Notes: generated from the sequence alone by a model not told the origin. A stretch of 64,000 nucleotides of DNA from an uncultured Gammaproteobacteria bacterium (GCA_964482085.1 CAYZVS010000004.1:11878-75877), one strand, 5' to 3'; counted from the stretch's first letter, positions 7,926 through 27,865 are shown. Made by a program: numbers and translations.

Positions 7926-8648
7926 TTACGGCCGCTCGGCCTCTGTGGCAAGCGTTTCCGTATACAACCAATCTCCCCCAACCTCTCGTAAGCGGGCATC
8001 ACCAACAGGTTTTCCAAAAGCCCCTAAAAGCGATGAAGCGTAAGGAAAAAAGTGCAGATGCAAATCAAACGTATATCGATACGGCCTCTGCTTAGGAACA
8101 ACGATAACCAACTTGTGTCGCGTTAAACGCCTAAGTTCCGACAACGACTTTCCCAAATCACGCACATGCTCGAGCGTATGCGTACAAACCACCGTATCAA
8201 ATGAGCAATCGGGAAACGGAAGCGCTTCTACATTCGCTTCAAGAAAAGTAGCGGACGATGCTCGCTGACGCGCTTCATCACAGATAATAATGTCCGTCGC
8301 CGTTACACGCGCTCGCTCAACAAGTTTTCCAGCAAGCACACCCTTTCCGCAACCCGCCTCCAAAACATCTCCACCAACAATCTCGCCAAGCACAGCACCA
8401 ATTGCTTCATCAGTTAAATCCGTATCACGCTCCATAAGTACAGGCTCCACATCGCGATACGCTTGCGCAAATTCCTCTTCCGTCATCGCCCAAGCTTTTT
8501 CTTTAAACGATAAAAAAACATGCGCTCGGTCTTTATACAAAATCCGAAACGGAATCGACATAAACCACCGGGCATCACGCAACAAAGGTGGAAGCAATTG
8601 ATCCAAAATAAAATGGAATTTCAATGCTGTTTGTCGTGAAAATTTCAT
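7926..8648 (-). CDS. class I SAM-dependent methyltransferase
   Basis: 240 aa. Contains VLEAGCGKGVLAGKL (motif I) and CTHTLEHVRDL. Confidence 0.75.
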   Translation of the reverse strand: MKFSRQTALKFHFILDQLLPPLLRDARWFMSIPFRILYKDRAHVFLSFKEKAWAMTEEEFAQAYRDVEPVLMERDTDLTDEAIGAVLGEIVGGDVLEAGCGKGVLAGKLVERARVTATDIIICDEARQRASSATFLEANVEALPFPDCSFDTVVCTHTLEHVRDLGKSLSELRRLTRHKLVIVVPKQRPYRYTFDLHLHFFPYASSLLGAFGKPVGDARLREVGGDWLYTETLATEAERP

Positions 8649-13400: not shown

Positions 13401-14083
13401 CACCACTCAATTAATTCCGCTACTCCCTTCCAAGGAACAGCGCGCGCAACAGTAAAACATACGACAGGAGCCTCTAAACCTTCAACACTTCTTTTTTGTT
13501 CTCGAGAAAACCCTTCAGGAAGCGTATCCTCGGCATTTCGAATCGTTTTAATAAAAGCCGGATCAACACCCCATCGCAAAATAACAGAATGCAAATAATT
13601 GCTCGGGGCAATGATCTGACTCGCTCGCTTAGCTACAAAGCGCTCGATCTTTTCATACAAACCAATAAGACCTCCATGTTTCTTTTCTAAAAAAGCATCA
13701 AGTAAATCTCGTTCTCCTTTTTGTTGAGCCATCTCCCACGCGTAATCGCCAGGAACACGTAACACTGCCGGCACCTTTCGTAATCGCGCAGCCAACATTG
13801 TCGGCAAACCTTCTGATACAGCACCTTGCAAATACGCAACAGAAACGTCCTTCAACTCGCGATACGCCGCAAACATGAATCGAGCATATCGAATAAACGG
13901 CCCACCGCGACGAGAAACGCGCACCACACGCCAGCCCTCTTCCGATGAAGTCTTTTGTTCACCATAGGCAACAACCGTAACCGTATGCCCAACAGAAACC
14001 AAAGCACGCGCCATGGCTCGCGCATAAATAGAAGGTCCTCCTCCTTCTGGTGGGTAAATACCCGAAGCAATCAAAATTCTCAT
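10448..14083 (-). CDS. tri-domain glycosyltransferase fusion: GT4 + GT4 + polytopic GT-C (ArnT/PMT, GT39/83-like) membrane domain
   Basis: Single stop-free ORF. Track aa ~12-385 are GT4 (MRILIASGIYPPEGGGPS..., NSGYEGYPHVVAEAASMGVPCL). Track aa ~395-755 are a second GT4 (SSRYEGFGRTILEAMAAGVAVV). Track aa ~765-1221 carry about 11 hydrophobic helices and one ~150-aa hydrophilic loop. Start ATG 14083 forms an ATGA overlap with the upstream stop. Confidence 0.75.
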   Translation of the reverse strand: MRILIASGIYPPEGGGPSIYARAMARALVSVGHTVTVVAYGEQKTSSEEGWRVVRVSRRGGPFIRYARFMFAAYRELKDVSVAYLQGAVSEGLPTMLAARLRKVPAVLRVPGDYAWEMAQQKGERDLLDAFLEKKHGGLIGLYEKIERFVAKRASQIIAPSNYLHSVILRWGVDPAFIKTIRNAEDTLPEGFSREQKRSVEGLEAPVVCFTVARAVPWKGVAELIEWWKELPETHQLVIAGEGPETEKWKRLAQASSAQDRIRFVGRLDREQIGNWMRASDVFLLNSGYEGYPHVVAEAASMGVPCLVSDQGGNPETKEVFGDLITVLPYNQREAWIEALNRVTHNVERVTLAAKWTHKEMTKQVERVLVNVGEGSGPLQTVMFSFDRELLDTESASSERLRHLAGEGSIQAIVLSRFKTDEIAQSEHLMVYGFSGNSIVRFFRSIWQGMKSVGTVPNRSVVTAQDPFIAGLIGYIVSRVKDVPLEVQEHGDFYSGYWKKESIKNRLLSVLGKCILQQAERVRVVSERVKRHLVAIGIHENRIEVIPVAVDVSSLLVKEMVVRAEVFRFVVPCRFVEQKGLDVLLEAAKQLKIKHVPFQIRLIGRGPLLPMLHGRIESMGLVEQVKIEDWKNPDELWNTADGFVLSSRYEGFGRTILEAMAAGVAVVTTNVGCVGSLFCDKIEGSVVPIGDAAALSEAMRHTIENRAETDVMRKNAREKAAAFQKMSTLHGSQREGWKRLCEFVGEVRPRFALWVLIFVLFALVTRLASAFLFHHGLVNREWGFYTLVEHWFQGYGYSYATELGCSSAYRSPGFLFFLTALYSVIRPENTLVQALVQNFIAWLALILVYVVGKRLVGRKAALLGAFMMACYPYTFYHFTQYYHTFLSVFLMLFLVWTLLRLKDNKKISTAILAGVSIAALAYIQGTILPAMPFVVLWFLWMWWPDWKRAILVAVIMAVVSAGLIAPWTYRNWTVFHTFVPFTTDLGHGFYKANNEYIYEITKRGYPMEIIDDPVVSSTDPNYIMFTIQPWLRAELEADGVYRDSEYWTEWHPKYPVGKLEHCSERGLLNEAQFSKYWGDKGSAWMETHYWSDGWKIQLQKLKTFWQPGLFPSVKTGAPWTFANNPLKVFLARAAVWVSTLVVVWFGLLGLVIALRRKKKEAVLIVIILITYSLMHTVFVGYTKYRMPLDHLLAPFAAYALFVLYETCLRRK

Positions 14084-14781
14084 GTCTTTTCCAAAACCAA
14101 TGTTGTCGACCATTTCACCTTATCTAAATCTTCAGGAAAATAAAGATCATTCAATCGTTCTTCAAAGGCATACCACGCTTGAACCGCTTCCTCAGACGCT
14201 CCTCGCATAAAGCCTTTAATCGGATACAAGTTATGCTTACGAGTCATGAGCACCTTAAACCCAGCCGCTTCAGCCTGCAAACGGAATTCTTTATCATCGA
14301 CGTGCTTCATATACGGGCCCTGAATTCCAACCATAGCCAACAATTGACTCACCGGAACCATCAAACGCTCCTTTAAATCGTGAGATCGAAAGTGCCCATC
14401 ATCATAATTGAGATAAGCAATGCCTCCAGTCTTCAACGATTGATACACCGTCTTCAAAAAAGCATCCTTATCAACAACATGCTCAATCGCACTAAATGCC
14501 GTCACAACATCAAAAGATTCTTCTGTCGATAAAATCTGCGCATCCCCTTCCTTTAATTCAATATTCGAGAACCCTGCAAATTCCTTCCGTCCACGTTCAA
14601 TGGCCACGCGATCATAATCAAAGCCTCGATAGACTGCCTGTGCATGCGTCTGTAAAAAAATCTTCCACGACGTTGCCGCGCCACAACCTAAATCAAGAAT
14701 CTTAAAATGATACGATTCAAATCGTTCATGTAGCTCAGATAAAATCCACTGCTTAGCAGCATTTCCGGCAGTGTAAATCAT
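14080..14781 (-). CDS. class I SAM-dependent methyltransferase
   Basis: 233 aa. Contains ILDLGCGAATS (motif I) and FDVVTAFSAIEHVVDKDAFLKTVYQSLKTGGIAYL. Confidence 0.8.
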   Translation of the reverse strand: MIYTAGNAAKQWILSELHERFESYHFKILDLGCGAATSWKIFLQTHAQAVYRGFDYDRVAIERGRKEFAGFSNIELKEGDAQILSTEESFDVVTAFSAIEHVVDKDAFLKTVYQSLKTGGIAYLNYDDGHFRSHDLKERLMVPVSQLLAMVGIQGPYMKHVDDKEFRLQAEAAGFKVLMTRKHNLYPIKGFMRGASEEAVQAWYAFEERLNDLYFPEDLDKVKWSTTLVLEKT

Positions 14782-15905
14782 AGGGATTCAAGAATCATTT
14801 TCATCTGCTCTGCGATACGCCGCCAATCATAACCCTCGCGCACAACACGCGCACCATTCATCACGACCCGCTCACGCAAACCAGATTCTGACAAAAGACG
14901 ATCAACGGCTTGAACAATCGATTCCGGATTCCGCGGCTCACAAAACACCCCCGTTTCTCCATCAGTCAAAAAATCCGGGATACCGCCAACGCGCGTTCCC
15001 ATAATCGGAATCTCGGCGGCCATCGCCTCTAAAAATGAATTTCCCAAACCCTCGGAAAGAGAAGGTCTAATAAAAATATCACAAGAACGTAAAAGCTCAG
15101 GCAAATCCGCATGTGCTTTATACCCTGCAAAAATTACGCGATCTTTTATACCCAGTCCATGTACCAATGTACGTAGCATCACTTCATCCTCCCCAACGCC
15201 AATCACCAAAAATTTACAACGCGCAGGAAGTAAGGGAATCGCTCTAATAACATCGTCCACTGCGTTCTTGAGCGACAAGCGCGATGCCGTAACGAGCACG
15301 ATTTCCTCTTCAGTAAAACCAAATGACTTACGAAGCTCTTGTCGGCGCTCACTTGATACGATATGTGAAAAACTCTCTATATCCACACCATTAGGAACAA
15401 TATCCACTGTTCCAAGAAACCCATTCTTCACAGCCCACTCCCCAAGAAACCGACTAATCGCCTGTACACGATCAGCCCGCTTAAAAAGCATGCGCTGAAG
15501 AAAACTAAAAATACCTAAACGTTTTGCATACTTCTCCAACGGATCGCCTTCTTGCAAGGTCAAAAGCAATTTCGATTTTGGACGTAACCAACAATAAAAT
15601 AAACTCGCAAATCCCGCATAACTCGCCATCATCGACCAAACCGGTGTTCCCTTTGCAACCAATCGCTTTGCTTTCCATGCGCCAACAAATGGCAAAAGAT
15701 ATTTGTCGATCGAGTATCCAAAACCCACACGATACACGTCGACATTCCCTATCCGTTCATGGTCAGTTAATCCGCGCTTTAATCGTGCGCAAATTAAAAC
15801 AAATTCCATCGACGGCATCCGATCCGTCAATTCCTTCAATGCCACTTCCGCGCCTCCGACAACCGGATAAAACGCCGTGGAGAAAATTAAAATACGTTTA
15901 TCCAT
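14778..15905 (-). CDS. GT4 glycosyltransferase
   Basis: 375 aa. Contains ILIFSTAFYPVVGGAEV and PSLSEGLGNSFLEAMAAEIPIMGTRVGGIPD (E-x7-E). Confidence 0.85.
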   Translation of the reverse strand: MDKRILIFSTAFYPVVGGAEVALKELTDRMPSMEFVLICARLKRGLTDHERIGNVDVYRVGFGYSIDKYLLPFVGAWKAKRLVAKGTPVWSMMASYAGFASLFYCWLRPKSKLLLTLQEGDPLEKYAKRLGIFSFLQRMLFKRADRVQAISRFLGEWAVKNGFLGTVDIVPNGVDIESFSHIVSSERRQELRKSFGFTEEEIVLVTASRLSLKNAVDDVIRAIPLLPARCKFLVIGVGEDEVMLRTLVHGLGIKDRVIFAGYKAHADLPELLRSCDIFIRPSLSEGLGNSFLEAMAAEIPIMGTRVGGIPDFLTDGETGVFCEPRNPESIVQAVDRLLSESGLRERVVMNGARVVREGYDWRRIAEQMKMILESL

Positions 15906-17667
15906 ATTTTTTCAACCACGTTGCAAGTGAATACAACATCCACAATCTATTTCCGTGATCCGATCCATTGTCATTCTCTTGCACAAGTTTTATCACCTCT
16001 GCACGAGAGACATAAGCATCAAGCTTCGTATTATCCAAACAACGCTCTGCAAAAGCCGCTCGCAACGGTCCTCGGAACCAAACAGCCAATGGAACTTGGA
16101 ATCCACGTTTTGGTCGTTGCAAAATTTCCTCTGGTAAAATATCTTTCACTGCTTCTACTAATAAACGCTTCTTCAGCTTGGAAGAATACCGATATTCCAA
16201 CGGCAAGCGCGTAACATATGAAACCAATTCCTGATCGAGTAGCGGACTACGAGCTTCAAGTCCTTGCGCCATTGTCGCGCGGTCCATCTTCACATTCAAA
16301 TCATCCGGCAAGTAAGAGCGCAAATCAAAATCCATTGCCGCCGCCATTGGATCCAGTTCAGGATTTAAATGTGAGCGAACAAATTCCAGCGCTTCCGGCT
16401 GCTGAAAATACGCGCCACAAAACAAAGCCGGATACCCGCCAGTAAGCGTTTCCGCAAAACGATCATAACGTTTATCTCTTGTTATCCATCCAATGCTACG
16501 TGCTACATGATACGCGCTACGCGCCAATCCCGTCTTCTTTAAACGCAACGCTTTCTCAAAATATCCATAACGACGATACCCACCAAACAACTCATCACCG
16601 CCATCACCCGTTAAAACAGCCTTAACATGCTTTTGCGTTTCGCGTGCAAGAATCCACGTATTCAATGCAGACGAATCGGCAAACGGGGCATCATATTGGT
16701 TGATCACATCATCTGCAATCGCGAGCAAATCTTCCGGCTTCGCGATAAATGCGTAATGCTCAAAACCAAATCTCTTGGCGAGTTCAGCTGCCTGATCACG
16801 TTCATCAAATGCCGCTTCCTCAAATCCGAGCGTGAAAGAAGAAAGTTTAATGCCTTGCTGATGTGCGATCGCCGCAATCGCTGAAGAATCGATTCCACCT
16901 GATAAAAAAATACCAACAGGAACATCAGCGATCAATCGTAAACGCACACTCTCCTCCAAAAGCTTCCGAACTTCTTTACCTGCATCTTCAAACGAAATAT
17001 TCAACGCTGATTCTTCCGGTAAATATTTCGTAATAGAAACGTTTCCATCTTTCAACCATCCACAATTCCCCGGCTCCAGACTCTTCACCCCAACAAATCC
17101 CGTAAGCGGGCTCGGGACATATTGCAAACCTAGAAATAATTTTACGGCTTGTTCATCGATCTTGAATTTCTCAAGCGCGCCAATCGCCTTCAACTCTGAT
17201 GCAAACAAAAACGAAGATGCGTCATCGCGATAAAAAAACGGTTTCTTGCCAATACGATCGCGTGCAAAAAATAACGCTTGCTCTTGTTTATCCCATATCG
17301 CAAAAGCAAACATGCCACGAATCTTCTCCAACATTTTTTCTCCATCTCTCGCAAACAATTTCAACAAGACTTCCGTATCGCTTGTCGATCGAAAAGAATC
17401 TGTCTCAAATTCCGATCTCAACTCCTGATAATTATAAATTTCTCCATTAAACGTAACCGTATATCTCCCATCTGCGGATACCATCGGCTGTTTCCCGTTC
17501 TCCGACAAATCAACGATAGAAAGACGTCGATGAGCAAATCCAGCTACCCCATCCATCCAAATCCCCTCCCCATCCGGCCCACGCTTAGCCAAAGCTAAAG
17601 CCATGGCCTTCAAACGACCTTGGTCAGCTTGGCCATTTTTTCGTACTTCACCGGCAATCCCGCACAT
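15898..17667 (-). CDS. asnB: asparagine synthase (glutamine-hydrolysing) family amidotransferase, glycan-cluster paralog 2
   Basis: I trimmed the start to MCGIAGEV, because the Ntn amidotransferase needs Cys at position 2. Has SGGIDSS and GDGGDELFGGY. Confidence 0.85.
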   Translation of the reverse strand: MCGIAGEVRKNGQADQGRLKAMALALAKRGPDGEGIWMDGVAGFAHRRLSIVDLSENGKQPMVSADGRYTVTFNGEIYNYQELRSEFETDSFRSTSDTEVLLKLFARDGEKMLEKIRGMFAFAIWDKQEQALFFARDRIGKKPFFYRDDASSFLFASELKAIGALEKFKIDEQAVKLFLGLQYVPSPLTGFVGVKSLEPGNCGWLKDGNVSITKYLPEESALNISFEDAGKEVRKLLEESVRLRLIADVPVGIFLSGGIDSSAIAAIAHQQGIKLSSFTLGFEEAAFDERDQAAELAKRFGFEHYAFIAKPEDLLAIADDVINQYDAPFADSSALNTWILARETQKHVKAVLTGDGGDELFGGYRRYGYFEKALRLKKTGLARSAYHVARSIGWITRDKRYDRFAETLTGGYPALFCGAYFQQPEALEFVRSHLNPELDPMAAAMDFDLRSYLPDDLNVKMDRATMAQGLEARSPLLDQELVSYVTRLPLEYRYSSKLKKRLLVEAVKDILPEEILQRPKRGFQVPLAVWFRGPLRAAFAERCLDNTKLDAYVSRAEVIKLVQENDNGSDHGNRLWMLYSLATWLKKYG

Positions 17668-17740
17668 ACCAACCAGCCTAGCGGAAACCGATTTTTTTCG
17701 CAAAACTGGCACTTTTTTACGCTTTTGATATGGTGATTCT

Positions 17741-18859
17741 ATGAGAATCGCACTCTTGGTAACTCAGGGCGAGCATGGAGGCGTCCAGGACTTCCTCGGC
17801 CGCTTTATGAGCCACCTAAAGACCCAAGGCCATCAAGTGGCCGTCTTTTGCGGTCCCGGAGACTGGCTAGAAGCAAAATGCACCATAGAGGGCATCCGTT
17901 TTATCCGATTACACAAACTCAAACGGAATCTTCACCCCTGGTTTGACCTGCAGGCAACTCGTGAACTCCGCATCGCGCTACGCGATTACAAACCCGACGC
18001 CGTGCATTTGAACAGTTCCAAAATAGGCATCATCGGATCATTAGCGGCACGTCGCGCACAAGTACCACGTATTGTTTATCGCATCGGCGGTTGGGCTTTT
18101 TTAGAAGATCTTTCTCCGCTTAAAAAATGGCTCTATCGATCAGCTGAGATTTTCACGGCACGATTTAAAGACATTATTATCTGTGTAAACCCCGACGATG
18201 CAGAAATCGCAAAAAGATACGGAATCAAACCGCGGACAGAAATCCGTTGCGTTCCAAATGGCATCAATACAGATTCAATGCTCACGCAACTTTATACACG
18301 TGAAGAAGCACGCAGAATCCTGAAAGCAAACGATCATTTTATTTTTGGCACTATCGCCAATTTTTATCCAGCAAAAAATCTTCCCAACTATATTGAAGCT
18401 TGCGCGATCGTTGCTGTAAAAAATCCGGAAGCGCGATTTGTTATTATCGGCGATGGTGAAGAACGCGCTCTGATTGAAAACGCAATCCAGAAATACAACG
18501 TAAAAAACAAAATCATTCTCGCAGGAGCACGTGAAGATGCAGATCGCCTTTACTCGGCTTTTGATGCTTTCGTCCTCCCCTCCTCAAAAGAAGGCATGAG
18601 CTGGGCTCTGCTCAAAGCAATGGCTTGCGGACTCCCCTGCATCGCAACCGATGTCGGCGCCGCTAAATGGATGCTTGATCAAAATACCGGACTCCTCGTG
18701 AAACCCGCCGATACGAATGGCCTCGCCACATCGATGCAAGAAATAATAACAAACAAATCACTCCGGACGACACTCGGTGAAAACGCACAGAAAGCGGTAC
18801 AAGACCGCTTTCCGTTGGAGCAAACAATGAAGGGCAATGAACTCGCCCTGACTTCCTAG
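17741..18859 (+). CDS. GT4 glycosyltransferase
   Basis: 372 aa. Contains MRIALLVTQGEHGGVQ and PSSKEGMSWALLKAMACGLPCIATDVG. Divergent from the main operon. Confidence 0.85.
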   Translation: MRIALLVTQGEHGGVQDFLGRFMSHLKTQGHQVAVFCGPGDWLEAKCTIEGIRFIRLHKLKRNLHPWFDLQATRELRIALRDYKPDAVHLNSSKIGIIGSLAARRAQVPRIVYRIGGWAFLEDLSPLKKWLYRSAEIFTARFKDIIICVNPDDAEIAKRYGIKPRTEIRCVPNGINTDSMLTQLYTREEARRILKANDHFIFGTIANFYPAKNLPNYIEACAIVAVKNPEARFVIIGDGEERALIENAIQKYNVKNKIILAGAREDADRLYSAFDAFVLPSSKEGMSWALLKAMACGLPCIATDVGAAKWMLDQNTGLLVKPADTNGLATSMQEIITNKSLRTTLGENAQKAVQDRFPLEQTMKGNELALTS

Positions 18860-21186
18860 CGTCGTAAACCCTTGTATTCAGACGTATTTGTAGCGACGTC
18901 CACGGGAGCAGCAGCTTCCGGAGTTGGCGCAGATACCGGTACTATCGACGATGCCGCCTGCGGATTCTGAAGCGCCTGTAATGCCGATTCCGTTGTCGGA
19001 TCGATGGCATTTGCCGCGCCAAGCAATTCCATCGCGAGTTCTGGCTGTTTACCGACAATCAATTTATAAACAAGTTGCGCATAGACATCGCCCGTTGCAA
19101 CTGGATAATCCGTCGTAAGGCCAGCAGTAAACTTTTTGATTCCATCAACATCGCCACGGATCATCAATGCATCCATGACCACGACGAGTTCCCGTGCGCT
19201 CTGCAAACGATACGGATACGGAACTGATAATGCTTTTTGAATATTCTCTGCACCAGCTTCAAGTTCATGCTTGTCGTACATCGTAGTGATGCCAAGATTC
19301 CAATATCCTTCACCGTAGTCAGGATCAAAAGAAATGACATTACGGAAAATATTAATAGCCGGTTCCAGATTGCCGGTCATTAAATACAACCGCGCCAAAC
19401 CGTAATGCAGCTGCTGTCGTTTAGGGCTGGTCTGAATTGCGGCTTGATATTGCTGCTCGGAAACTTGCGCCTCACCAGGAATAAGCGAGATCATTTCTTG
19501 CGCTAAACGAGCGTAGATAAATCGTGGATGCGTATTGTTTGGATGACGCGCAATTTCCTGCTCTGACAATTTCTTGGCGAGCGCATAAAGCTCCTGCCAC
19601 TGTGGAACGCGCTGAATACCTCCAGATGAAGCAAGTGAGATCATGTTTCTGGCAAGCAAGAATGACTGCTCATCAAGATACGGGGTCCATGTCTTGGACG
19701 CCTCGGTTGCAAGTTGCAACGACACAGCCGGATTCACACTAAAGACCGCATTAGATTGCAGGGCAAGCCGAGAAATCATGAATGGATTTATAGACGTACG
19801 TAACACGAGCAGACCCATCACAATCGTCAAAACAATATAACCCGTCCAAGGCGCATTAATAGTTCCTACCTCTTTATGCTTTTGTGCCATCGCCTCCTTT
19901 TCTCCAACAAACTCACCTTTTGTTGCGGCGATAATGAGAGCAAACAACAGATAACTCATCGAGAAACCAGCCGGATGATCAAACACAAACAAGTTCTGGA
20001 CAAAGTACGCCACAGGCAGTGAGAACAGGATCGCCGCAATTGGTAAATCGATATATTTTTTGCGATAAGCCCTGATCGTGCTGTAAAAGATCGCACCGTA
20101 AACTCCAAAGAAGGTTAGGAAGCCAAACAAACCTGTCATCGACAAAACATCCATCACTGTATTATGCGCCCGATCAAACCAGGTTTCATACGATCCAAAG
20201 CGCAAAGAAATTGGATTGTATTTCTGGTTAAAGAGAATATGGAAGTTATCAAATCCCCAACCGGTAAGCGGACGCTCGACAAAACCCTGCCACGCAATGT
20301 CCCAAGCGATAAGACGCGTACTAACAGCCCCCTGAAAATCAACGAAGCGATACAGCGGAGACTCGCGTATAATTGGCTGTTCACGCACAACATACAATGT
20401 TCCATAGCCAGCAAACAAAGCTAACAAAATACCAAATACACCAAAGCGTAACTTTTTATTTTTGGTAAAAAGCGCTGTAAAGAAGGCAAAGGCGATTAAA
20501 CCAGCTGTAACTCCGACAAGCGCACCACGCGACTGCGCCAACAAAAAAGCGATGATATCTAGACAGAAGATCAACACATACGCGATGCGCCAGTTTTTGG
20601 ACGTATTTCTCCAAAAAAGCAAAGCCAAGAAAAAGAAGTTGAAAATCTGATACGCGGCCATGTAGATCGGATTATCAAGCAATCCTCCCACACGTGGACC
20701 AGCCGGAAACATGAGCAGATTAGGATTCATTTTCTGCATGATGGCCACGATAGCCATGATGGCTGAGAGTGCCACCTGATAATGCAGGAGCTTCTTCCAT
20801 TGTTCCCAAGTTTTCATGACACCCACCGTCATCGTAAGCCAAGCCAAGAAATGCAAAAGCGTAAACAAGCCATTCATGCGCTCCTGATTCCCCCACCAGG
20901 CACGATATGGATCAGACGCAAACACAACAGACAAACCAATCGCAACAAAGTAAGCCAAAATCGCAAAATACAAAACATGCTTCTTGGGGCGATAAACCGG
21001 CTCCATCCAAGCTAAAGCAAGATATGCAGGAAAAGTCAGCCCAACCAGAACTTGAAAGAAGATGAGCTTAGAAAAAACAAAGGGGAAAATGACGACAGGA
21101 ATAAATACCAAGGGCAAAAGTAGCCCTCCGTAGACCCCGAGCATGCAGATCGCCTTAAAAAACTTGATGGCTTGTGAGCGGTTCAT
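18856..21186 (-). CDS. O-antigen ligase/polymerase-like (Wzy_C) polytopic membrane protein with C-terminal TPR domain
   Basis: About 12 hydrophobic helices. Wzy_C-like blocks are LAQSRGALVGVTAGLIAF and RAHNTVMDVLSMTGLFGF. The C-terminal ~300 aa carry TPR-like repeats (LARLYLMTGNLEPAINIFRNVISFDPDYGEGYWNLG). I chose ATG 21186 over the track's TTG at 21210. Confidence 0.75.
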   Translation of the reverse strand: MNRSQAIKFFKAICMLGVYGGLLLPLVFIPVVIFPFVFSKLIFFQVLVGLTFPAYLALAWMEPVYRPKKHVLYFAILAYFVAIGLSVVFASDPYRAWWGNQERMNGLFTLLHFLAWLTMTVGVMKTWEQWKKLLHYQVALSAIMAIVAIMQKMNPNLLMFPAGPRVGGLLDNPIYMAAYQIFNFFFLALLFWRNTSKNWRIAYVLIFCLDIIAFLLAQSRGALVGVTAGLIAFAFFTALFTKNKKLRFGVFGILLALFAGYGTLYVVREQPIIRESPLYRFVDFQGAVSTRLIAWDIAWQGFVERPLTGWGFDNFHILFNQKYNPISLRFGSYETWFDRAHNTVMDVLSMTGLFGFLTFFGVYGAIFYSTIRAYRKKYIDLPIAAILFSLPVAYFVQNLFVFDHPAGFSMSYLLFALIIAATKGEFVGEKEAMAQKHKEVGTINAPWTGYIVLTIVMGLLVLRTSINPFMISRLALQSNAVFSVNPAVSLQLATEASKTWTPYLDEQSFLLARNMISLASSGGIQRVPQWQELYALAKKLSEQEIARHPNNTHPRFIYARLAQEMISLIPGEAQVSEQQYQAAIQTSPKRQQLHYGLARLYLMTGNLEPAINIFRNVISFDPDYGEGYWNLGITTMYDKHELEAGAENIQKALSVPYPYRLQSARELVVVMDALMIRGDVDGIKKFTAGLTTDYPVATGDVYAQLVYKLIVGKQPELAMELLGAANAIDPTTESALQALQNPQAASSIVPVSAPTPEAAAPVDVATNTSEYKGLRR

Positions 21187-21230
21187 AGAATACGGACAAG
21201 CATAGCACAACCCCTCTAACCCGCGGAACC

Positions 21231-21314
21231 TAACCTCTCTAAATCTCCCCTTCTACGAAGGGAGACTTCCTAATCAGAACCCTCCTTCGTAGAAAGGAGG
21301 GCAGGGTGGATTAT
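21231..21314. repeat. 84-nt double-hairpin repeat, copy A (3' flank of the DUF559 gene, overlaps its stop codon)
   Basis: taacctctctaaatctccccttctacgaagggagacttcctaatcagaaccctccttcgtagaaaggagggcagggtggattat. Two hairpins: tctcccc-ttc-tac-gaa-gggaga and ccctcctt-cgtaga-aaggaggg. A partial 11-nt copy of the repeat end (aacccctctaa) lies at 21209-21219. Confidence 0.75.
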
Positions 21315-21682
21315 CCCGTCCTTCTTTCTCCCATCTTTCGTTCCAATCGTTGAATCACTTCATCCAGCCTTTGTACAACCTCATCATTCCAAAATCTAAT
21401 CAGCTCAATTTTATGCGCCGCAAGAAAATCAGATCGCCTCACATCATATTCAGCTTGATCTTTATCACCATGAAAACGGCCATCCACCTCAATCCCAAGT
21501 CTCAAAGCGACACAAAAAAAATCCAGTACGTAAGGCCCGACAGAATATTGACGTAAAAATTTATACCCCTGAACCCTGCGCATTCTAATACGCTTCCAAA
21601 GCTCACTTTCCGCCTCAGTCATATTCCGACGCAACTCCCGCCGCCGATCCCTCAACCTCCGATCATTGTAAACATATTGCAT
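21311..21682 (-). CDS. DUF559 endonuclease-like domain protein (Vsr/PD-(D/E)XK-like fold)
   Basis: 123 aa. MTEAESELWKRIRMRRVQGYKFLRQYSVGPYVLDFFCVALRLGIEVDGRFH is a typical DUF559 signature. Confidence 0.8.
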   Translation of the reverse strand: MQYVYNDRRLRDRRRELRRNMTEAESELWKRIRMRRVQGYKFLRQYSVGPYVLDFFCVALRLGIEVDGRFHGDKDQAEYDVRRSDFLAAHKIELIRFWNDEVVQRLDEVIQRLERKMGERRTG

Positions 21683-21719
21683 TCTCTACTCCGTTCCATG
21701 CATTTTAATATCTGTCAAT
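21683..21719 (-). promoter_or_regulatory. conserved 37-nt leader ATTGACAG-N13-TGGAACGGAGTAG-AGA directly before the DUF559 start
   Basis: The same 37-nt architecture precedes yraN at 29872-29908. Identity is 8/8 at the 5' end and 13/13 at the 3' block. The element includes a GGAG Shine-Dalgarno. Confidence 0.4.
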
Positions 21720-21734
21720 CCTAATCTCCGACCG

Positions 21735-21828
21735 TAACCCCTCTAAATCTCCCCTTCTACGAAGGGAGACTTTCTACCTAATCAGAACCCCCTCCTTCGC
21801 AGAAGGGAGGGGGCAGGGGGTGGGTTAT
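21735..21828. repeat. 94-nt double-hairpin repeat, copy B (5' flank of the DUF559 gene)
   Basis: A direct repeat of copy A, with a 35-nt block 100% identical. It differs by indels CC and GG that lengthen both arms of one hairpin (8 bp to about 10 bp). The plus strand carries the G-run tract GGGAGGGGGCAGGGGGTGGG. Confidence 0.75.
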
Positions 21829-21831
21829 AAC

Positions 21832-21865
21832 AAAACAAACACCGCCCGAAGGCGGTGTTTGTTTT
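21832..21865 (-). terminator. rho-independent terminator of the giant surface-protein gene
   Basis: Perfect 15-bp stem aaaacaaacaccgcc / ggcggtgtttgtttt with loop cgaa, 20 nt after the stop at 21886. A/T runs lie on both sides. Confidence 0.75.
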
Positions 21866-21885
21866 TACCTGACTGACGCTAGGGA

Positions 21886-24800
21886 TTAGCGGGTCAAGGT
21901 CTGGGTCTGTGTGAGGTCTTCGACGTAGACATCGTTTGTCCAGTCAAATGAGCTACCCGGAGCCGCAAAGGTGTGCGGAACTTCCGAGAAGTCAGACCAT
22001 ACGAAGGAACCTGGCTGTTCAGCCGTACCATCGTTGTTCGTATCGAGGTTGATACCAGGGCTGGCGAGACCAGGGTTGGTCAAACCAGTACCAGCAATCG
22101 AACCAACTACGAGGTAACCCGTTGTTACCGTACCAGCGAGGTTGCGGGTAGGAGCAACGCTGACAGTATTGCCAGCGACCGAACCGGCTGGGGTGGCGTA
22201 CAAGGTGTACACGTTACCCGAACCAGAAATCGTCTCTTCATTAGTGAAGGTCACAACGATGCGACCCGTCAATGTAGCAGCGAGAATCGAACCCGACTCG
22301 ATGTTAGCACCGGCGTCATCTTCGACGGAGTAGTCACCGAGGTTAAGGTCCGTGGAACCCTTACGAACGCGGAAGTTCGTGAGAGAAATGGAACCGGTCT
22401 TCGAGAAGTCAAAGCTGATCTTCTTGAGAGCGACCGAGCCAGCGCTGTCAGCAGAAACCTGCATGCGGTACAAATCCTGTGAAGTACCGTCGGCAAGCGT
22501 CGTGGTTGAAAGCGTCTGACGCGTAGCAGTTGGCTTGGACTTGCGGATGACAAACGAGTTGCCAACCGTCGGGGAACCGGTCGAGTAGACAAGGTCACCG
22601 GAAGCAAGACCAACAGCGCGAACATTGAATTTGCCTGCGTAGTCAGCGCTCCAGTTACCTGAAGTCAAACCAGCACCAAGACCAAGTTGGACCTGGTTAC
22701 CGGAACGGACGACACCGGAGGTGGCACCCGAAACCGAGGAGGAAGACTGGACGTTATTAATCTTAGCCCAAAGCTGGAATGTTACAGAACCGTCCTTTGG
22801 AACCATGATCGGAGCAGACGTCAGATCCACGTCCTTGTTGCGCAAAGCGCCGGACGAGAAAATGTCGGAGCCAGCGACCACACCATCCTTCGCGACAGCA
22901 ATCATCGTGAAGTTGGCTGCATCACCCGTCGAAGTGACGTTGATGCGCTCAATGTTCATGGCTTCGAACTGAGCCGTAGCCTTGAATTGAGCGAGGTTCT
23001 GCCATGTGTCACCACCGGCGACGAGAATCGTCGACTGGCGGAGGTTATCTGCAGCAACAGTAAGCGTACCGCCGTTCTTGACCGTTTGGACCAAGACCGG
23101 AGAAACACCTGCGTTGGCGATGACGTTAGCACTCAACGTTGGGGTTACCGTGTTGGAGTCCTGGTCATCAGCCGTGACATCGTTCGCAGAAGCGATACCG
23201 ACAGCAAACTTGTCTTCAGGGCCACCGATAACGGAGTCGGCAGTACACTTAACAACAAGGGTCTTAGATGAACCGGCAGGGATCGAAGCATTCACGTTCG
23301 TGATGTTCAATGCACCTGTGGTGACATCTGGGGACTGTGCGTTACCAAGCTGAGTCGATCCGTCGAAAAGGGCACACGAGGTGACCACGTTTCGCAAATC
23401 GCTGCCGATAAAGCTGGCTGGGGCGGTGGAATCACCAGTACCCGTAAGCTTGACCGAGCGGATCAAGATCTGACTCTGGGAGCCAGCCGTGAACACAAAG
23501 CCAGCGGAAGCGATGTTCTGCTCCTTCTTAACAGCCGTACCGGCTGTTGGGGAAGCAGCGAGAGCGACCGAGAGGTTCGATGCCTTCACCGTCATCGGGT
23601 TACCCGCGATGGTGGTGTTCGGAACAATTTCCGAAGCTGGCAAGAATTCACCCGTGTCAACAATACGAATATCTGAAGTTCCATACAACGAACCGCCAGG
23701 ACCCATCGTTACACGGTACTGGTTGACGCCAGAGCCAGAGAATTGGCCATTGATGTCATCAGCACTGTTTGTGAGGTCAGTCGTGAACGCGAGGTTCAAG
23801 GTCTGGCCTGCACTGACGTTGAACGAGTCATTGAAGGTAAGCGTTCCGGAGTTGCTCGAGCTGGAAACAAGAGCCGTCGGCAACGAGATAGGACCCATAA
23901 CGGTCGCACCTGTGTCGAGGTTCTTGATCTTAAGGTCGCGGAAGTACTCTGTACCTGCGGAACCCTTTACCAACGCGTTCGGGGTAAGACCAGCGAGCGA
24001 GAACGTCATCTTGCGGATTTCGAGCATGCTGTCCGAAGCCGTGATGGCGAACTTGAACATAGGAACATCTTGGGCACCCTTGGCTACGTCAGATGTCGCA
24101 GGACCGTTGAAGGTCGTTGTGAACTGACCGCCCTTGGTTGTGACCAAGCTGAAGTTTGTGCTTGCACCATCAAACGAACCGTTACACGGGGATGTCGTGT
24201 CAATACAGACGCGAGCACCGGTACCGAATTCTGTGTCGATAGCGTAGACATCCGTCGAGTACTCGACGTAGGTCTTAATCGTGCGACCCGAGCGGCCAGC
24301 AACGGAAGCAACCAAGGAGAAGACACGCGTTGTGCCGTCGGTAACGAGATAAGCTGGGTTGAAGTTCAACACAATCTTATCACCTGCAAGCGATGGGGTC
24401 ATCGCAACAAGCGTCGTACCTTGATAGAGCTTCAAGTTGGTGAGGTCGGAGTTCGAGATGTCACCTGTCTGAAGAAGAGTCACGCGACGGACTTCAATGT
24501 CGTTACCTTGTGCAACGAGCTTGAAGTTGGCGATTTCAGCTTCAGAGGCGCCAATCTGCGGATCGGTTGGAGTCGTACCCTTCTGAACGTCGAGGCGGGA
24601 AGCCGTCGTCGTACCGATGGTAAAGACATTACCGCGGACCGGGAAAGAACCCGTAACCGTGGCACCCGTACCGGCCAAGACGACGGAAGCAGCGTCCGAA
24701 ATTTCGAACGAGTGCTGACCGCCAGCTGTGACGCCGGAGTTCGTGTCACCGACAACCAAGACCGAGTAGGTCTGACCGGCGGCGATCGAGATGTTCAAAC

Positions 24801-25758
24801 CGTTGAATTGAACCATGTTGGTCGACGAGTTGATCGTGCGGCCAGTGGTCAAACGCGTACCGTCAGCCTTGTACAGGTAGACGTTGGCGAAATCAGAGGA
24901 AGCACCGACGCCAACGCGGCGGACGGTAAGACCTGTGATAAGAGCGCCAGCAGCACCGGCCGTCAAGTTGTACTTGGCGAGCATGATGCTTGAAGCGCCT
25001 TGCGGAACGTTCTGTCCTGCTGGCGTGTCGGAAGCAAGAGTAACCGAGGTTGAGCCACCAACCATGGTCGTACCAGGGTTGATAACGTTAGCCAAGACAT
25101 CTTCGCGACCCGTTACATCAGCACCGTTCGGATACGAGATCGTCGTGGTGATGACATACATTGGGTTGAAGTTGTTGGCCGTGAAAGCAGGGTCAACAAG
25201 CTTGCGCTTCATACCACCCCAAATGACGTAGCGGCTAGAGTCACCAACGTAGGTGATAACCGTACCTTCTGGGTGCATGGCCGAAGAAATCGACGCACCA
25301 ATGGAGTAGTTAACGAAGAAACCATCCGGGACGTCGACAACGCGCGAGGCCCATGAGGAGCCGTAAAGCGAGATAGCGAGAGCCTCGGACTCGACCCAGT
25401 GAAGAACACCGTTTGGGGAAACAGCGTACACCTTAGGATCGGTCGTGATTTTCACGAGGTTGGTACCTGGGCGAATGGTGACGTTGCCACCAATCGGGTA
25501 CGAAGCGAGCTCCGAGTCCGAAATGGTCTGGACGGAATTGAAGTTCATGTACCACGAGAAGTATGTCTTCTCGTTAGGGAAAACGTAGCGCTTCATGTCG
25601 CTGGCAAAGTAGTAGACAGCAGGACCGGAAGCCTTGATGAGCTGACCAGGCGACGCGGCGGATGCCATGCTAGGAACAGCAAGCAATCCGGCACCGACGG
25701 ACCAAGTGATGGTCGTCAGAGCAACGAAGCTGGAGAAAATTTTCTTGAGAATATTCAT
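21886..25758 (-). CDS. 1290-aa secreted S/T/G/A/V-rich surface (S-layer-like) protein with divergent beta-sandwich-like repeats
   Basis: I trimmed the start to MNILKKIFSSFVALTTITWSVGAGLLAVPSMASA (Sec signal peptide). There is no LPXTG motif and almost no Cys. At least 6 divergent modules are visible (e.g. EVRRVTLLQTGDISNSDLTNLKLYQG..., ALKKISFDFSKTGSISLTNFRVRKG...). Spot counts on two 60-nt lines gave about 52-57% GC, against about 45% in one neighbouring line. Confidence 0.65.
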   Translation of the reverse strand: MNILKKIFSSFVALTTITWSVGAGLLAVPSMASAASPGQLIKASGPAVYYFASDMKRYVFPNEKTYFSWYMNFNSVQTISDSELASYPIGGNVTIRPGTNLVKITTDPKVYAVSPNGVLHWVESEALAISLYGSSWASRVVDVPDGFFVNYSIGASISSAMHPEGTVITYVGDSSRYVIWGGMKRKLVDPAFTANNFNPMYVITTTISYPNGADVTGREDVLANVINPGTTMVGGSTSVTLASDTPAGQNVPQGASSIMLAKYNLTAGAAGALITGLTVRRVGVGASSDFANVYLYKADGTRLTTGRTINSSTNMVQFNGLNISIAAGQTYSVLVVGDTNSGVTAGGQHSFEISDAASVVLAGTGATVTGSFPVRGNVFTIGTTTASRLDVQKGTTPTDPQIGASEAEIANFKLVAQGNDIEVRRVTLLQTGDISNSDLTNLKLYQGTTLVAMTPSLAGDKIVLNFNPAYLVTDGTTRVFSLVASVAGRSGRTIKTYVEYSTDVYAIDTEFGTGARVCIDTTSPCNGSFDGASTNFSLVTTKGGQFTTTFNGPATSDVAKGAQDVPMFKFAITASDSMLEIRKMTFSLAGLTPNALVKGSAGTEYFRDLKIKNLDTGATVMGPISLPTALVSSSSNSGTLTFNDSFNVSAGQTLNLAFTTDLTNSADDINGQFSGSGVNQYRVTMGPGGSLYGTSDIRIVDTGEFLPASEIVPNTTIAGNPMTVKASNLSVALAASPTAGTAVKKEQNIASAGFVFTAGSQSQILIRSVKLTGTGDSTAPASFIGSDLRNVVTSCALFDGSTQLGNAQSPDVTTGALNITNVNASIPAGSSKTLVVKCTADSVIGGPEDKFAVGIASANDVTADDQDSNTVTPTLSANVIANAGVSPVLVQTVKNGGTLTVAADNLRQSTILVAGGDTWQNLAQFKATAQFEAMNIERINVTSTGDAANFTMIAVAKDGVVAGSDIFSSGALRNKDVDLTSAPIMVPKDGSVTFQLWAKINNVQSSSSVSGATSGVVRSGNQVQLGLGAGLTSGNWSADYAGKFNVRAVGLASGDLVYSTGSPTVGNSFVIRKSKPTATRQTLSTTTLADGTSQDLYRMQVSADSAGSVALKKISFDFSKTGSISLTNFRVRKGSTDLNLGDYSVEDDAGANIESGSILAATLTGRIVVTFTNEETISGSGNVYTLYATPAGSVAGNTVSVAPTRNLAGTVTTGYLVVGSIAGTGLTNPGLASPGINLDTNNDGTAEQPGSFVWSDFSEVPHTFAAPGSSFDWTNDVYVEDLTQTQTLTR

Positions 25759-26012: not shown

Positions 26013-27182
26013 TTACGGTGGACTTGTCGTGCTTGTTGCGGTGGATGATGCTTCGGGAGCTGTCGCCGGAGTCGAGCTTGTTATGACGGGAAATGGAATA
26101 GGAATATTTGATTGCGTACTGGAGGCAACTAAAAGATCCGCAGCCGTTTCCGCCTGCGCTGCGGCCTTGGAAGCTTCCAAAAGCTTACCTGAAACCTCAC
26201 TTAATTTATTAGCATTCAAAAGAGTACGAGCTTCCTGCAACGTCGTGCTCGCGGCATTGAATTGTCCAACAGTTGTGCTTGTCATTCCTTGCAATAGGTT
26301 AGACCCCGTACCAGTTGCTTGTAATTGATTGGAGATATTACTGGAATCGCTTATCGAGCGCAACTTATCCTCCGAGTCCGTAAGACTCGCCGTAATACGA
26401 TCAACTTTATTTGTAATCGATTGACGTACGTCTGCCTCACTCACAATCCACTCGGTATCCGGATTCGTGCTCGCCTCAAGCAAAGCCTCGACTGCCGTAA
26501 CACCTGTATGAACAGCCGCGACCTCTGCCTCGGCGATACTCGACTTCACTTCCGGTGAAGCTTCATTCTTCACCAACTGTAAATTCTGAATAATTTGCGC
26601 GCTAGCCTTGTCGACAATTTTAACCGCTTCTGCGCCACCTTTTGTTTGCTCGGCACGAACTTCCGTAACCTGCAATTTCACGGTGTTCAAATCACGCTTC
26701 AGATCTTCTGCAGCCTGCTTCAAACGCACCTGCTGCTCCGGAGCAGGCGTTGCAGCGATCTTTTGGATTTCTTCAACGCGTCGATCCACGAACGAAGACT
26801 TGAGCACCAAACGCTCAGCCTTACCGGATGTAAAAGCTAAACGCGTCTGCTCGGTTGCAATTTTAATCGGATAAAGAAAATCTCCCGGAAGCGATCGGTC
26901 GGAAGCGGAAACGCTTGCAATTGATCCGCCAAGCACCGTGATCATCACGGACAAAATCGCAAGAGCCGGCGCACGCATCAAATTTGTCAAACGCGGCGGA
27001 ACCAAAAGTCGCATTGCAGAACGCGCACGCACAGGCATGGCTGCCGGTTGCGTTGGAAGCGTATTACGGACCTGAAGTAAAAGGTGCTCACGCGTACGAG
27101 CAACAAACGCCTGATCAGGTACGATAACACGCTCCGTCGTTCTGACGGATTGCAGCTTTCGCATCAAATCACGTTTGGTCAT
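26013..27182 (-). CDS. DUF5667-like single-pass membrane protein, candidate anti-sigma factor
   Basis: 389 aa. One TM helix (ALAILSVMITVLGGSIASV) followed by LPGDFLYPIKIATEQTRLAF, a DUF5667-like signature. Coiled-coil-rich, with an S/T/P-rich tail. Lies 4 nt downstream of the ECF sigma gene. Confidence 0.6.
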   Translation of the reverse strand: MTKRDLMRKLQSVRTTERVIVPDQAFVARTREHLLLQVRNTLPTQPAAMPVRARSAMRLLVPPRLTNLMRAPALAILSVMITVLGGSIASVSASDRSLPGDFLYPIKIATEQTRLAFTSGKAERLVLKSSFVDRRVEEIQKIAATPAPEQQVRLKQAAEDLKRDLNTVKLQVTEVRAEQTKGGAEAVKIVDKASAQIIQNLQLVKNEASPEVKSSIAEAEVAAVHTGVTAVEALLEASTNPDTEWIVSEADVRQSITNKVDRITASLTDSEDKLRSISDSSNISNQLQATGTGSNLLQGMTSTTVGQFNAASTTLQEARTLLNANKLSEVSGKLLEASKAAAQAETAADLLVASSTQSNIPIPFPVITSSTPATAPEASSTATSTTSPP

Positions 27183-27186: not shown

Positions 27187-27747
27187 TTAAGTCGCGAGTT
27201 TGTCGAGTGCTTTGAGTGCCCGATGATAGATCACGCGTACATGCCCGGGGGTCTTGTCGAGAACAAGGGCGATATCCGTAAAGCCAAGTCCGTCGATGAG
27301 CCTCAATGTCAGCACATCACGATAATCTTCTTTCAGACGTTCAATACGTTCGAGAACAATGCGTAGATCAGTGCGAGCCTCGACCACGCGTTGTTCGCGG
27401 CCTCGATCCGAGAACTGTCCTTCAAGATAAGAAGACGTTGCAGGATCATCATTTGTTACAACTTGCTTCTGAGCCTCTGCTTTACGGTAATAATCTACAA
27501 CCGAGTTTCTGGCGATTTGATACAAAAAAGCGCGAACATTACGAATTTCCGTATTTTGTAAAATAGCGTTCCAAAAACGCAAAAACGTCTCTGACGTCAC
27601 ATCTTCAGCCACTTCACGCGAGGGAAGCTTTAGGTAAACGAACCGGTATATCGCAGAGATATACCGGTCGTAAAGGCTGCTAAATGCATCCGCGTCCCGC
27701 TTGGTACGAACGCGATACAGTTGGTATTGGTCGATGAGCTGGCTCAT
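27187..27747 (-). CDS. ECF-type sigma-70 family RNA polymerase sigma factor
   Basis: I trimmed the start to MSQLIDQYQL, which has a GGAGGG Shine-Dalgarno 6 nt upstream. Region 2 is FSSLYDRYISAIYRFVYLKL...DVTSETFLRFW. Region 4 is DVLTLRLIDGLGFTDIALVLDKTPGHVRVIYHRALKAL. Confidence 0.85.
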   Translation of the reverse strand: MSQLIDQYQLYRVRTKRDADAFSSLYDRYISAIYRFVYLKLPSREVAEDVTSETFLRFWNAILQNTEIRNVRAFLYQIARNSVVDYYRKAEAQKQVVTNDDPATSSYLEGQFSDRGREQRVVEARTDLRIVLERIERLKEDYRDVLTLRLIDGLGFTDIALVLDKTPGHVRVIYHRALKALDKLAT

Positions 27748-27785
27748 GCGTTTCCCTCCAAAAACCACTGCTAGGAAGTTTATGA

Positions 27786-27814
27786 ATATTAGCCATAAAA
27801 TAGCATTTTTGCAA
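27786..27814 (-). promoter_or_regulatory. candidate sigma-70-type promoter of the sigma operon (TTGCAA-17 nt-TAATAT)
   Basis: On the reverse strand: -35 TTGCAA (27814-27809), a 17-nt spacer, and -10 TAATAT (27791-27786). This lies about 38 nt upstream of ATG 27747. Confidence 0.35.
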
Positions 27815-27865
27815 CCCTGTGGGCTATTTTTCATCCACAAAAGCCGATACAAATACTGTTTTTAA

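Follow-up and report, generated by a model that had tools for sequence, protein, structure and literature searches.

The locus described here raises the question of what a Wzy_C-family membrane enzyme acts on when it carries a tetratricopeptide repeat (TPR) domain and its gene lies beside that of a large secreted protein. The locus is part of a 64,000-nucleotide stretch of bacterial DNA (GCA_964482085.1 CAYZVS010000004.1:11878-75877), hereafter the window, in which the gene of a Wzy_C-TPR protein (the ligase) and the gene of a 1290-aa secreted protein, here named BIG, lie on the same strand, 699 nt apart. A first-pass annotation, made from the sequence of the window, had proposed that the two form a surface-layer (S-layer) protein O-glycosylation system. 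Our answer is the same in kind and remains tentative: we would give slightly less than an even chance to the ligase being a protein O-oligosaccharyltransferase that glycosylates BIG. The predicted location of the TPR domain outside the cell, the adjacency to BIG and the precedent of the WsfB and WsaB enzymes together lead us to favor this reading. The two genes are as follows.

18856-21186, minus strand: Wzy_C-TPR protein, 776 aa, polytopic
21886-25758, minus strand: BIG, 1290 aa

For the comparison across species, we surveyed the contigs of one genome per GTDB species. The survey returned 80 loci, which were scored by tblastn, and the synteny denominators comprise only the loci with enough flank (for BIG, at least 4.4 kb upstream, n=57). 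In 56 of 57 loci, the gene directly upstream of the ligase gene, on its strand, is a full-length BIG orthologue, and the gap between the two has a median of 238 nt (76-2704); the synteny with a large Ser/Thr-rich protein in relatives, to which the first-pass annotation had tied its proposal, is therefore present. Among 15 loci whose contig ends nearer, 11 hold the BIG C-terminus. Additionally, a sigma factor homologue stands upstream of BIG in 53 of 54 loci and a DUF5667 gene in 52 of 54; a convergent GT4 glycosyltransferase gene lies on the opposite strand just downstream of the ligase in 66 of 71, and an AsnB gene was recovered in 44 of 62. Five further gene contexts, retrieved via identical-protein look-ups, all display one order, namely sigma factor, DUF5667 protein, a protein of ~1300 aa and the Wzy_C-TPR protein, with GT4 on the opposite strand, followed by AsnB and glycosyltransferases. 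The observation is real and far beyond chance, and a chance adjacency of BIG and the ligase is ruled out by these counts.

The exceptions are informative for the readings weighed below. In L017, the ligase homologue has no BIG within 10 kb. In L008 (91-2166) and L059 (14-1387), the place upstream of the ligase is taken by the gene of another T/S/G-rich repeat protein, which shares with BIG only one module, placed at the end of the protein. No pilin gene adjoins the ligase gene in the window or in the five retrieved contexts.

Homologues of both the Wzy_C-TPR protein and BIG are labelled Candidatus Uhrbacteria or Patescibacteria. By these labels, the source organism is an Uhrbacteria-type, ultra-small uncultured Patescibacterium of the Candidate Phyla Radiation (CPR), and the earlier description of it as CPR-like was right. 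Public records of metagenome-assembled genomes with the same gene cassette (L008, L011, L013-L016 and others in our survey) are often titled 'uncultured Gammaproteobacteria bacterium'; on such records, the title appears to be a placeholder, or a labelling error made at submission. Transmission electron microscopy at cryogenic temperature (cryo-TEM) of CPR cells showed an S-layer, with reported lattice periodicities of 3.8 and 10 nm, and no outer membrane, and type IV pili cover the cells (bioRxiv 10.1101/2020.05.14.094862). In the literature searched, CPR S-layers are reported from microscopy only, and no paper was found that names a CPR S-layer protein, a CPR O-oligosaccharyltransferase or DUF5667.

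The ligase was resolved into three parts by Pfam, AlphaFold2 (AF2) modelling, hydropathy and structural searches. The number of transmembrane (TM) helices is that of the model.

19849..21186, minus strand: Wzy_C/WaaL-fold catalytic membrane core, residues 1-446, 12 predicted TM helices, 76-aa outer loop at 267-342 (Pfam, AF2, Foldseek)
19747..19848, minus strand: extra 13th TM helix, residues 447-480 (AF2, hydropathy)
18952..19746, minus strand: predicted extracytoplasmic TPR-like helical repeat domain, residues 481-745 (Pfam, PDB profile, Foldseek)

The Pfam Wzy_C family (PF04932) matched residues 207-360 with 62.8 bits against a cutoff of 31.7 (E = 4e-17), and TPR_19 and TPR_11 matched residues 577-633 above cutoff, whereas no NCBIfam ligase subfamily was matched by the 776-aa protein. 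Both blocks quoted in the first-pass annotation, LAQSRGALVGVTAGLIAF and RAHNTVMDVLSMTGLFGF, are present, and its description of a Wzy_C protein with a C-terminal TPR domain was confirmed by Pfam and by the helical repeat domain of the AF2 model. This model, built on a 30-sequence alignment (mean predicted local distance difference test, pLDDT, 84; predicted template-modelling score, pTM, 0.80), starts with nine TM helices, after which come a 76-residue loop (267-342), three more helices of the membrane part, a short linker, a further helix (TM13, 447-480) and an all-helical repeat domain at residues 486-747. A 12-helix membrane core in which a large extracytoplasmic loop joins TM9 to TM10, as in this model, is the arrangement of the WaaL superfamily.

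The sole solved relative of the membrane part is WaaL (7TPG), recovered with E = 1.4e-10 by profile and E = 1.2e-06 by single sequence, and Foldseek aligned the core to 7tpg_B with a TM-score of 0.65 over 450 columns. In WaaL 7tpg, the same residues stand at the positions aligned with R220, R291 and H341, in the motifs RGA, RL..W and AHN; all three are invariant in 30 homologues. The equivalent residues are R215/R288/H338 in E. coli WaaL and R224/R298/H349 in PglL; they are required in the former and conserved in the latter (PMC3643930). By alignment and model, the protein is a WaaL-fold enzyme with an intact Arg-Arg-His active region. A lipid A-core acceptor appears implausible, as no outer membrane was seen on CPR cells by cryo-TEM.

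The proposal under study also depends on the side of the membrane on which the TPR domain lies, a point that the first-pass annotation had raised as a possible refutation. The domain is predicted to be extracytoplasmic, because the WaaL catalytic loop faces the periplasm and an extra 13th helix follows the core. TM13 is hydrophobic in 30 of 30 homologues (hydropathy at least 1.63), and the positive-inside count of the 30 homologues resulted in a mean K+R of 9.8 in the short inside loops versus 3.5 in the outside ones. By PDB profile and Foldseek, the TPR part best matches, in structure, consensus TPR proteins together with the substrate-binding TPR domains of OGT and SPINDLY. In these two enzymes, the TPR is fused to glycosyltransferases acting on proteins, which we count in favor of a protein acceptor. 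Mean identity across species is 67-72% in the catalytic core and 43% in the TPR domain, which harbors invariant patches at 501-509 and 587-592.

BIG, the candidate acceptor, was divided as follows.

25654..25758, minus strand: signal peptide, residues 1-35, cut after ASA (read from the translation; kept in orthologues)
25309..25653, minus strand: module 1, residues 36-150, a portable surface module of ~120 aa (alignment, HMM search)
25054..25308, minus strand: module 2, residues 151-235, diverged second copy of module 1 (internal repeat)
22024..25053, minus strand: array of about seven immunoglobulin (Ig)-like beta-sandwich domains, residues 236-1245 (internal repeats, AF2, Foldseek)
21889..22023, minus strand: conserved C-terminal tail, FVWSD.SEVPH...DWTND.YV.DL.Q.QTL (alignments, 61% mean identity)

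The signal peptide is of the Sec type, with KK, a hydrophobic core and a cut between ASA and AS. In the mature chain, T+S+G+A+V amount to 52% and S+T to 22%, the isoelectric point is 4.9 and there are 4 Cys; no LPXTG was found in BIG, and no Pfam or NCBIfam family matched it. The secreted, T/S/G/A/V-rich protein without LPXTG that had been annotated at first is thus borne out by the signal peptide and the composition. Orthologues are 42-84% identical over the full length, which appears unusually conserved for a surface protein. The family has more than 1300 database matches, and 77 columns of its alignment are at least 90% Ser/Thr.

Codon usage sets the gene apart from the rest of the window. 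Of the F/Y/H/N/D codons of BIG, 79% are NNC, and in the 38 other genes of the window that were compared the share is 24 +/- 11% (z = 5.1). An excess of C and a depletion of A at third positions recur in the orthologues of four other genomes with different base composition. The bias thus points to translational selection on a gene with very high expression, rather than to recent transfer. BIG looks like a major surface protein, very highly expressed as far as codon usage tells; a terminator of its own and the structured leader described below agree with this. It has the S-layer protein traits of being secreted, acidic and low in Cys, and carries the codon signature from which high expression is inferred. 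Considering the expression signature, the composition and the Ig-like array, BIG is probably the S-layer protein.

The AF2 model of BIG (36 sequences, residues 91-1290) is all-beta with about seven domains and a mean pLDDT of 84, in agreement with the internal repeats; its confidence is low in the module region. Foldseek against the PDB returned generic multi-Ig proteins (PrgB Ig-like domains, integrin legs and alpha-2-macroglobulin) with very low TM-scores, a result that speaks neither for nor against an S-layer, and BIG has no significant sequence relative in the PDB. The Bacteroidetes-type glycosylation sequon D[ST][AILVMT] was also tried and rejected, as it is not enriched in BIG (5 observed vs 6.9 +/- 2.5 in shuffles).

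The N-terminal module deserves separate treatment, as it bears on which proteins the locus serves. Within BIG, residues 17-117 repeat as residues 149-248 (E = 8e-4). Module 1 is the most conserved part of the protein (80% mean identity), with the consensus stretches VYY..DGKRY.FPNE.TYFSWY and TDPKVYAV. A second module copy of the window lies at 43653-44045 on the minus strand, near the C-terminus (residues 820-950, 41% identity) of a 1086-aa surface protein (43242-46502), where it adjoins a PG_binding_1 domain. An exhaustive hidden Markov model search recovered the module in 5021 representative clusters, 2039 of them at E <= 1e-30, either directly after the signal peptide or at the C-terminus, in host proteins of 232-1886 aa. 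The passengers identified in a Pfam scan of 76 module proteins comprise Big_1, Big_7, Invasin_D3, GH10, GH5, cupredoxin, beta-helix and beta-propellers. The module itself has no Pfam, NCBIfam or PDB relative, and a homology search with the module alone resulted in short fragments only, with no architectures. As it is portable and joined to diverse passengers, a distribution like that of SLH or CWB2, the module is probably a Patescibacteria wall anchor.

The same-strand arrangement and the 0.7-kb gap between BIG and the ligase, on which the first-pass annotation relied, hold, but the gap is occupied by a terminator and an inserted DUF559 gene.

21832-21865, minus strand: intrinsic terminator just behind the BIG stop, with a perfect stem of 15 bp, a UUCG loop and a tail rich in U (folding, repeat finder)
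21226..21811, minus strand: DUF559 (endonuclease-like) gene cassette with ~80-nt direct repeats at both ends (Pfam, repeat finder)

The terminator hairpin has a folding energy of -28.3 kcal/mol (z = -6.8). It was missed by a consensus promoter/terminator scan and was revealed by folding and the repeat finder; the consensus scan found no convincing sigma-70 promoter for BIG or the ligase gene either. The same hairpin is present in L001 (9940-9975), the closest complete relative. As it stands only ~35 nt before the ligase ATG there, the arrangement suggests that the ligase is expressed by read-through of the conserved BIG terminator, with little enzyme made per structural protein. The DUF559 gene (21311-21682; Pfam E 6.9e-30) is absent from L001 together with its cassette. 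The flanking repeats (21226-21301 and 21730-21811) are ~91% identical, harbor two hairpins each and occur in only two copies in the window. The insertion looks like a small mobile cassette and does not belong to the system.

The glycan genes lie on the other side of the ligase.

17741..18859, plus strand: GT4 glycosyltransferase, convergent with the ligase, stops overlapping (Pfam)
15898..17712, minus strand: AsnB/WsfA-like asparagine-synthase amidotransferase, first gene of the minus-strand glycan operon (Pfam)
1276..15905, minus strand: glycan biosynthesis genes (Pfam)

The third of these entries comprises GT4s, a GT2, methyltransferases, a GT4-GT4-PMT_2(GT-C) fusion, two UDP-GlcNAc 2-epimerase homologues, a second AsnB and a GFO/WbpB-like oxidoreductase. 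The ligase had been annotated as the head of a 19-kb glycan-assembly operon. This does not hold for the operon, which starts at AsnB (17712) with the plus-strand GT4 intervening; the glycan block itself is present and is longer than described, as it extends at least 10 kb more past the window start. Past the part of the block at 1-5816 in the window, its continuation in L085 (11053-21005) comprises DegT, a hexapeptide acetyltransferase, a DegT-GT2 protein, a radical SAM/B12 enzyme, a GT2, a PMT_2, an epimerase and a GT4. The GFO oxidoreductase, the 2-epimerases, two AsnB, DegT and the acetyltransferase point to an amidated diacetamido-uronic-acid sugar, and the gene set suggests, by resemblance, a pathway of the WbpB/E/D/I type with amidation. 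The ligase-proximal genes GT4, AsnB and GT4_a are conserved in most species.

The fusion at 10448-14113 (minus strand) encodes 1221 aa and consists of two GT4 units and a C-terminal PMT_2-like (GT-C) membrane domain, whose match of 24.2 bits falls just under the cutoff of 26.1; in L001, these units are separate genes. Together with the small GT2 genes, the fusion hints at a second outer-face glycosylation route.

The known systems closest to this locus are found in monoderm bacteria. WsfB of Paenibacillus alvei is a predicted S-layer O-oligosaccharyltransferase with Wzy_C and a C-terminal TPR motif (PMC2943079). The ligase of the window resembles it in combining both in one protein in a monoderm, a likeness of architecture only. 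The P. alvei slg locus likewise holds an asparagine-synthase homologue, wsfA, and glycosyltransferases (PMC2943079). The WsfB acceptor is an abundant secreted, wall-anchored S-layer protein, and BIG would be the candidate for this role here. The P. alvei protein, SpaA, is SLH-anchored and tyrosine-glycosylated, whereas BIG has no SLH and carries the new module; moreover, in the window the S-layer candidate gene immediately precedes that of the enzyme and is accompanied by a sigma/anti-sigma pair and a structured leader RNA. In Geobacillus stearothermophilus, the Wzy_C enzyme WsaB is predicted to move the completed lipid-linked glycan to Ser/Thr of the S-layer protein SgsE (PMC2943079), which is the reaction considered here. 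However, its TPR is a separate 168-aa protein, WsaA, and in the window the TPR domain is fused via the extra TM helix. The Geobacillus cluster also comprises an ABC transporter and the priming transferase WsaP, none of which were seen in ~45 kb here.

Neisseria PglL and Pseudomonas PilO/TfpO are members of the Wzy_C Pfam family too, with the same three residues in the catalytic region. In 21 of 31 cases, pglL genes adjoin a pilin substrate gene (PMC3643930); the ligase gene likewise adjoins a secreted-protein gene, in 56 of 57 loci, which is suggestive only. These enzymes differ in coming from diderms and in having pilin substrates, and PglL_A is undetected in the window protein. WaaL of Cupriavidus metallidurans (7TPG) shares the 12-TM core, the large outer loop and RGA / RL..W / AHN; unlike the ligase, it has neither the 13th helix nor the TPR domain and ligates to the lipid A-core of a diderm. 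Regarding the anchor, CWB2 domains of Clostridioides difficile bind the polymer PS-II, whose genes lie beside slpA. SLH modules anchor S-layers with pyruvylated secondary cell-wall polymer in Bacillus and Paenibacillus, as described in PMC6081394 and PMC8942822. The SLH and CWB2 systems resemble the present locus in that a portable anchor is shared by the S-layer and other surface proteins, with the polymer genes adjoining; the module described here is unrelated to them in sequence.

Taken in this light, the glycosylation of BIG by the ligase would proceed as follows. BIG would be exported by Sec, and its two N-terminal module copies would hold it at the wall, with the approximately seven Ig-like domains displayed. 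The ligase would take the glycan from undecaprenyl pyrophosphate and transfer it to a hydroxyl acceptor at the outer face of the membrane. The TPR domain would dock the newly exported surface protein, BIG first and possibly other module carriers, and the glycan from the adjacent GT4/AsnB/2-epimerase/WbpB-like locus would be attached to Ser/Thr/Tyr of BIG. As the ligase would be made by terminator read-through, much structural protein and little enzyme would result. What we infer in this scheme is the acceptor, the function of the TPR domain, the formation of a lattice and the read-through.

Several observations weigh against the scheme. A strong terminator, here plus an inserted gene, parts BIG from the ligase. 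The Pfam scan of the ligase resulted in no match to PglL_A (PF15864) or Wzy_C_2 at E <= 0.01. The TPR domain is far less conserved than the catalytic core (43% versus 67-72%), and TPR domains are found in polysaccharide-export scaffolds too. No flippase or priming phosphoglycosyltransferase was seen in ~45 kb, and the locus holds other candidate outer-face transferases, namely two PMT_2/GT-C proteins with small GT2 partners. The fold matches of BIG comprise generic Ig arrays only, with no S-layer protein among them. The synteny would be equally explained by a wall polymer that BIG binds, and the most conserved part of BIG is a module common to thousands of other proteins. Because this N-terminal module is common to many surface proteins, the synteny does not single out BIG as the acceptor.

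The last two points lead to the alternative that fares best, which we consider possible yet rather unlikely. Here, the locus would make a secondary cell-wall glycopolymer, the ligase would polymerize or ligate it, and BIG and the other module proteins would bind it non-covalently. The module behaves as expected for this role: it is portable, standing at the N-terminus of BIG and at the C-terminus, beside PG_binding_1, in the 1086-aa protein; its 5021 clusters with diverse passengers are the hallmark of a wall anchor; no other part of BIG is as well conserved; and it is all that the ligase neighbours in L008 and L059 share with BIG. The conserved ligase-proximal GT4, AsnB and GT4_a are likewise expected of a conserved polymer, and some Wzy polymerases match Pfam Wzy_C. 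However, wall polymers of monoderms are normally attached by LCP phosphotransferases, and no LCP phosphotransferase was seen in the 64-kb window. Genes of Wzy polymerases usually rank with the most divergent of a locus, whereas the core of this enzyme is 67-72% identical across species. We know of no role in Wzy or WaaL enzymes for a large extracytoplasmic TPR domain that, as here, is always present, and the precedents for such a domain are in protein-glycosylating enzymes (WsfB/WsaA, OGT, SPINDLY). A further argument against a polymerase role, that a conserved enzyme would serve a variable glycan, was dropped, as the proximal genes are conserved and the distal genes lie beyond the 10-kb flanks. 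Altogether, the O-glycosylation of BIG is plausible and survived the tests that were run, although the wall polymer fits the portability of the module, its conservation and the L008 and L059 loci at least as well.

A second alternative retains the enzyme and changes the substrate. The ligase would be a general O-oligosaccharyltransferase acting on many secreted proteins, or one for type IV pilins as PilO/TfpO are, and the adjacency of BIG would only reflect the order of an envelope island. The enzyme class, the topology and the TPR domain agree with this as well as with the glycosylation of BIG, general PglL systems have many substrates (PMC3643930), and CPR cells are covered in type IV pili. 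The ligase beside another module protein in L008 and L059, and without BIG within 10 kb in L017, would also be accounted for. On the other hand, the window and the five contexts have no pilin gene beside the ligase, BIG is adjacent in 56 of 57 loci, and adjacency usually marks the main substrate in characterised systems (PMC3643930). We regard this alternative as improbable.

Least probable of all, and a long way from likely, is a division of labour in which PMT_2/GT-C proteins and GT2 partners, using polyprenyl-phosphate sugars, would O-glycosylate BIG as Ppm1/Pmt do in Actinobacteria and the Wzy_C-TPR protein would serve a non-protein glycan: the PMT_2-like domain fused to two GT4 at 10448-14113, the separate PMT_2 genes in L001, L085 and the P0039 context and the small GT2 genes nearby speak for it, whereas the PMT_2 match in the window is under the Pfam cutoff, the PMT_2 family is broad, with glycosyltransferases for lipids and polymers among its members, and it is the Wzy_C-TPR gene, not the PMT_2 genes, that lies beside BIG.

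Upstream of BIG, the conserved cassette comprises two protein genes and an RNA element.

27187..27852, minus strand: extracytoplasmic function (ECF)-type sigma factor, first gene of the conserved cassette (Pfam Sigma70_r2/r4_2)
26013..27182, minus strand: DUF5667 membrane protein (Pfam DUF5667 7e-10)
25759-26001, minus strand: structured 5' leader RNA of BIG (alignments, covariance model)

The DUF5667 protein has a cytoplasmic N-terminus of ~70 aa, one TM helix, a helical exterior and an S/T/P-rich tail, a topology like that of anti-sigma factors. The leader comprises the 243 nt from the DUF5667 stop to the BIG start and is conserved across species. It harbors the invariant single-stranded motifs CCUGAC and AAGGUCGA, a hairpin with a variable tip, a long-range helix around an insert of 0-90 nt and a further hairpin that covaries by eye; its last hairpin overlaps the ribosome-binding site. 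An alternative pairing of UUCUCCCGC with GCGGGAGAA, which excludes the long-range helix, is plausible by eye but no more than an idea, as variation mostly gives mismatches.

A covariance model (R1) was built from 20 leader sequences. It recovered the element in the window and in 52 further loci, each time directly upstream of BIG. In 1.43 Mb, no match lay away from the leader, and a single extra match, weak and on the opposite strand, overlapped the L024 leader. The resulting 54-sequence alignment comprises the 53 leaders and this opposite-strand match, and it favors the structure, as it was fitted to the model; in it, 95.5% of the cells are paired and compensatory changes occur in 14 of 20 pairs. 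The double-change cells number 110 versus 31.7 +/- 4.4 in shuffles, with 0 of 500 shuffles reaching the observed value, and slid controls collapse. An independent MAFFT alignment of the leader resulted in 7 covarying pairs. The leader has no Rfam match, even at E <= 10. The leader begins at the DUF5667 stop codon, and BIG and the sigma/anti-sigma pair may therefore share a transcript that is afterwards processed or stabilised. The leader could serve to stabilise the mRNA, as a site of processing or as a riboregulator.

In its widest form, the proposal would be that the window holds a core envelope cassette of a large Patescibacteria clade, with an ECF sigma/anti-sigma pair, a leader RNA that controls or stabilises the mRNA, an S-layer protein, an anchor module and a TPR O-oligosaccharyltransferase that glycosylates the S-layer protein. 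We hold this combination to be doubtful as a whole. If BIG is glycosylated by the ligase, the S-layer O-glycosylation by a Wzy_C+TPR enzyme would be of an already known kind, and the unrelated acceptor, the anchor module and the leader RNA would be new.

A large part of bacterial diversity belongs to the CPR/Patescibacteria, most of which are attached to other cells. If the proposal in its widest form were true, their surface architecture and host attachment would become testable from named genes. The cassette provides concrete candidates, namely a surface-protein family, an anchoring module, a ligase, glycan genes and a regulatory RNA, for metaproteomes, heterologous expression and the fitting of cryo-tomograms. 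If the ligase were a relaxed O-oligosaccharyltransferase, it could also be of interest for glycoengineering.

Two further regions of the window were recorded. At 50182-52773 on the minus strand, a sortase gene has as its neighbours the genes of an ice-binding-like protein and of a DUF11/DUF7507 protein that bears an LPNTG sorting signal; by its gene content, this is a separate, putatively sortase-dependent surface or pilus locus. At 62290-63744, also on the minus strand, a 293-aa protein without a Pfam match comes after a second ECF sigma factor, and the two may be another sigma/anti-sigma pair.

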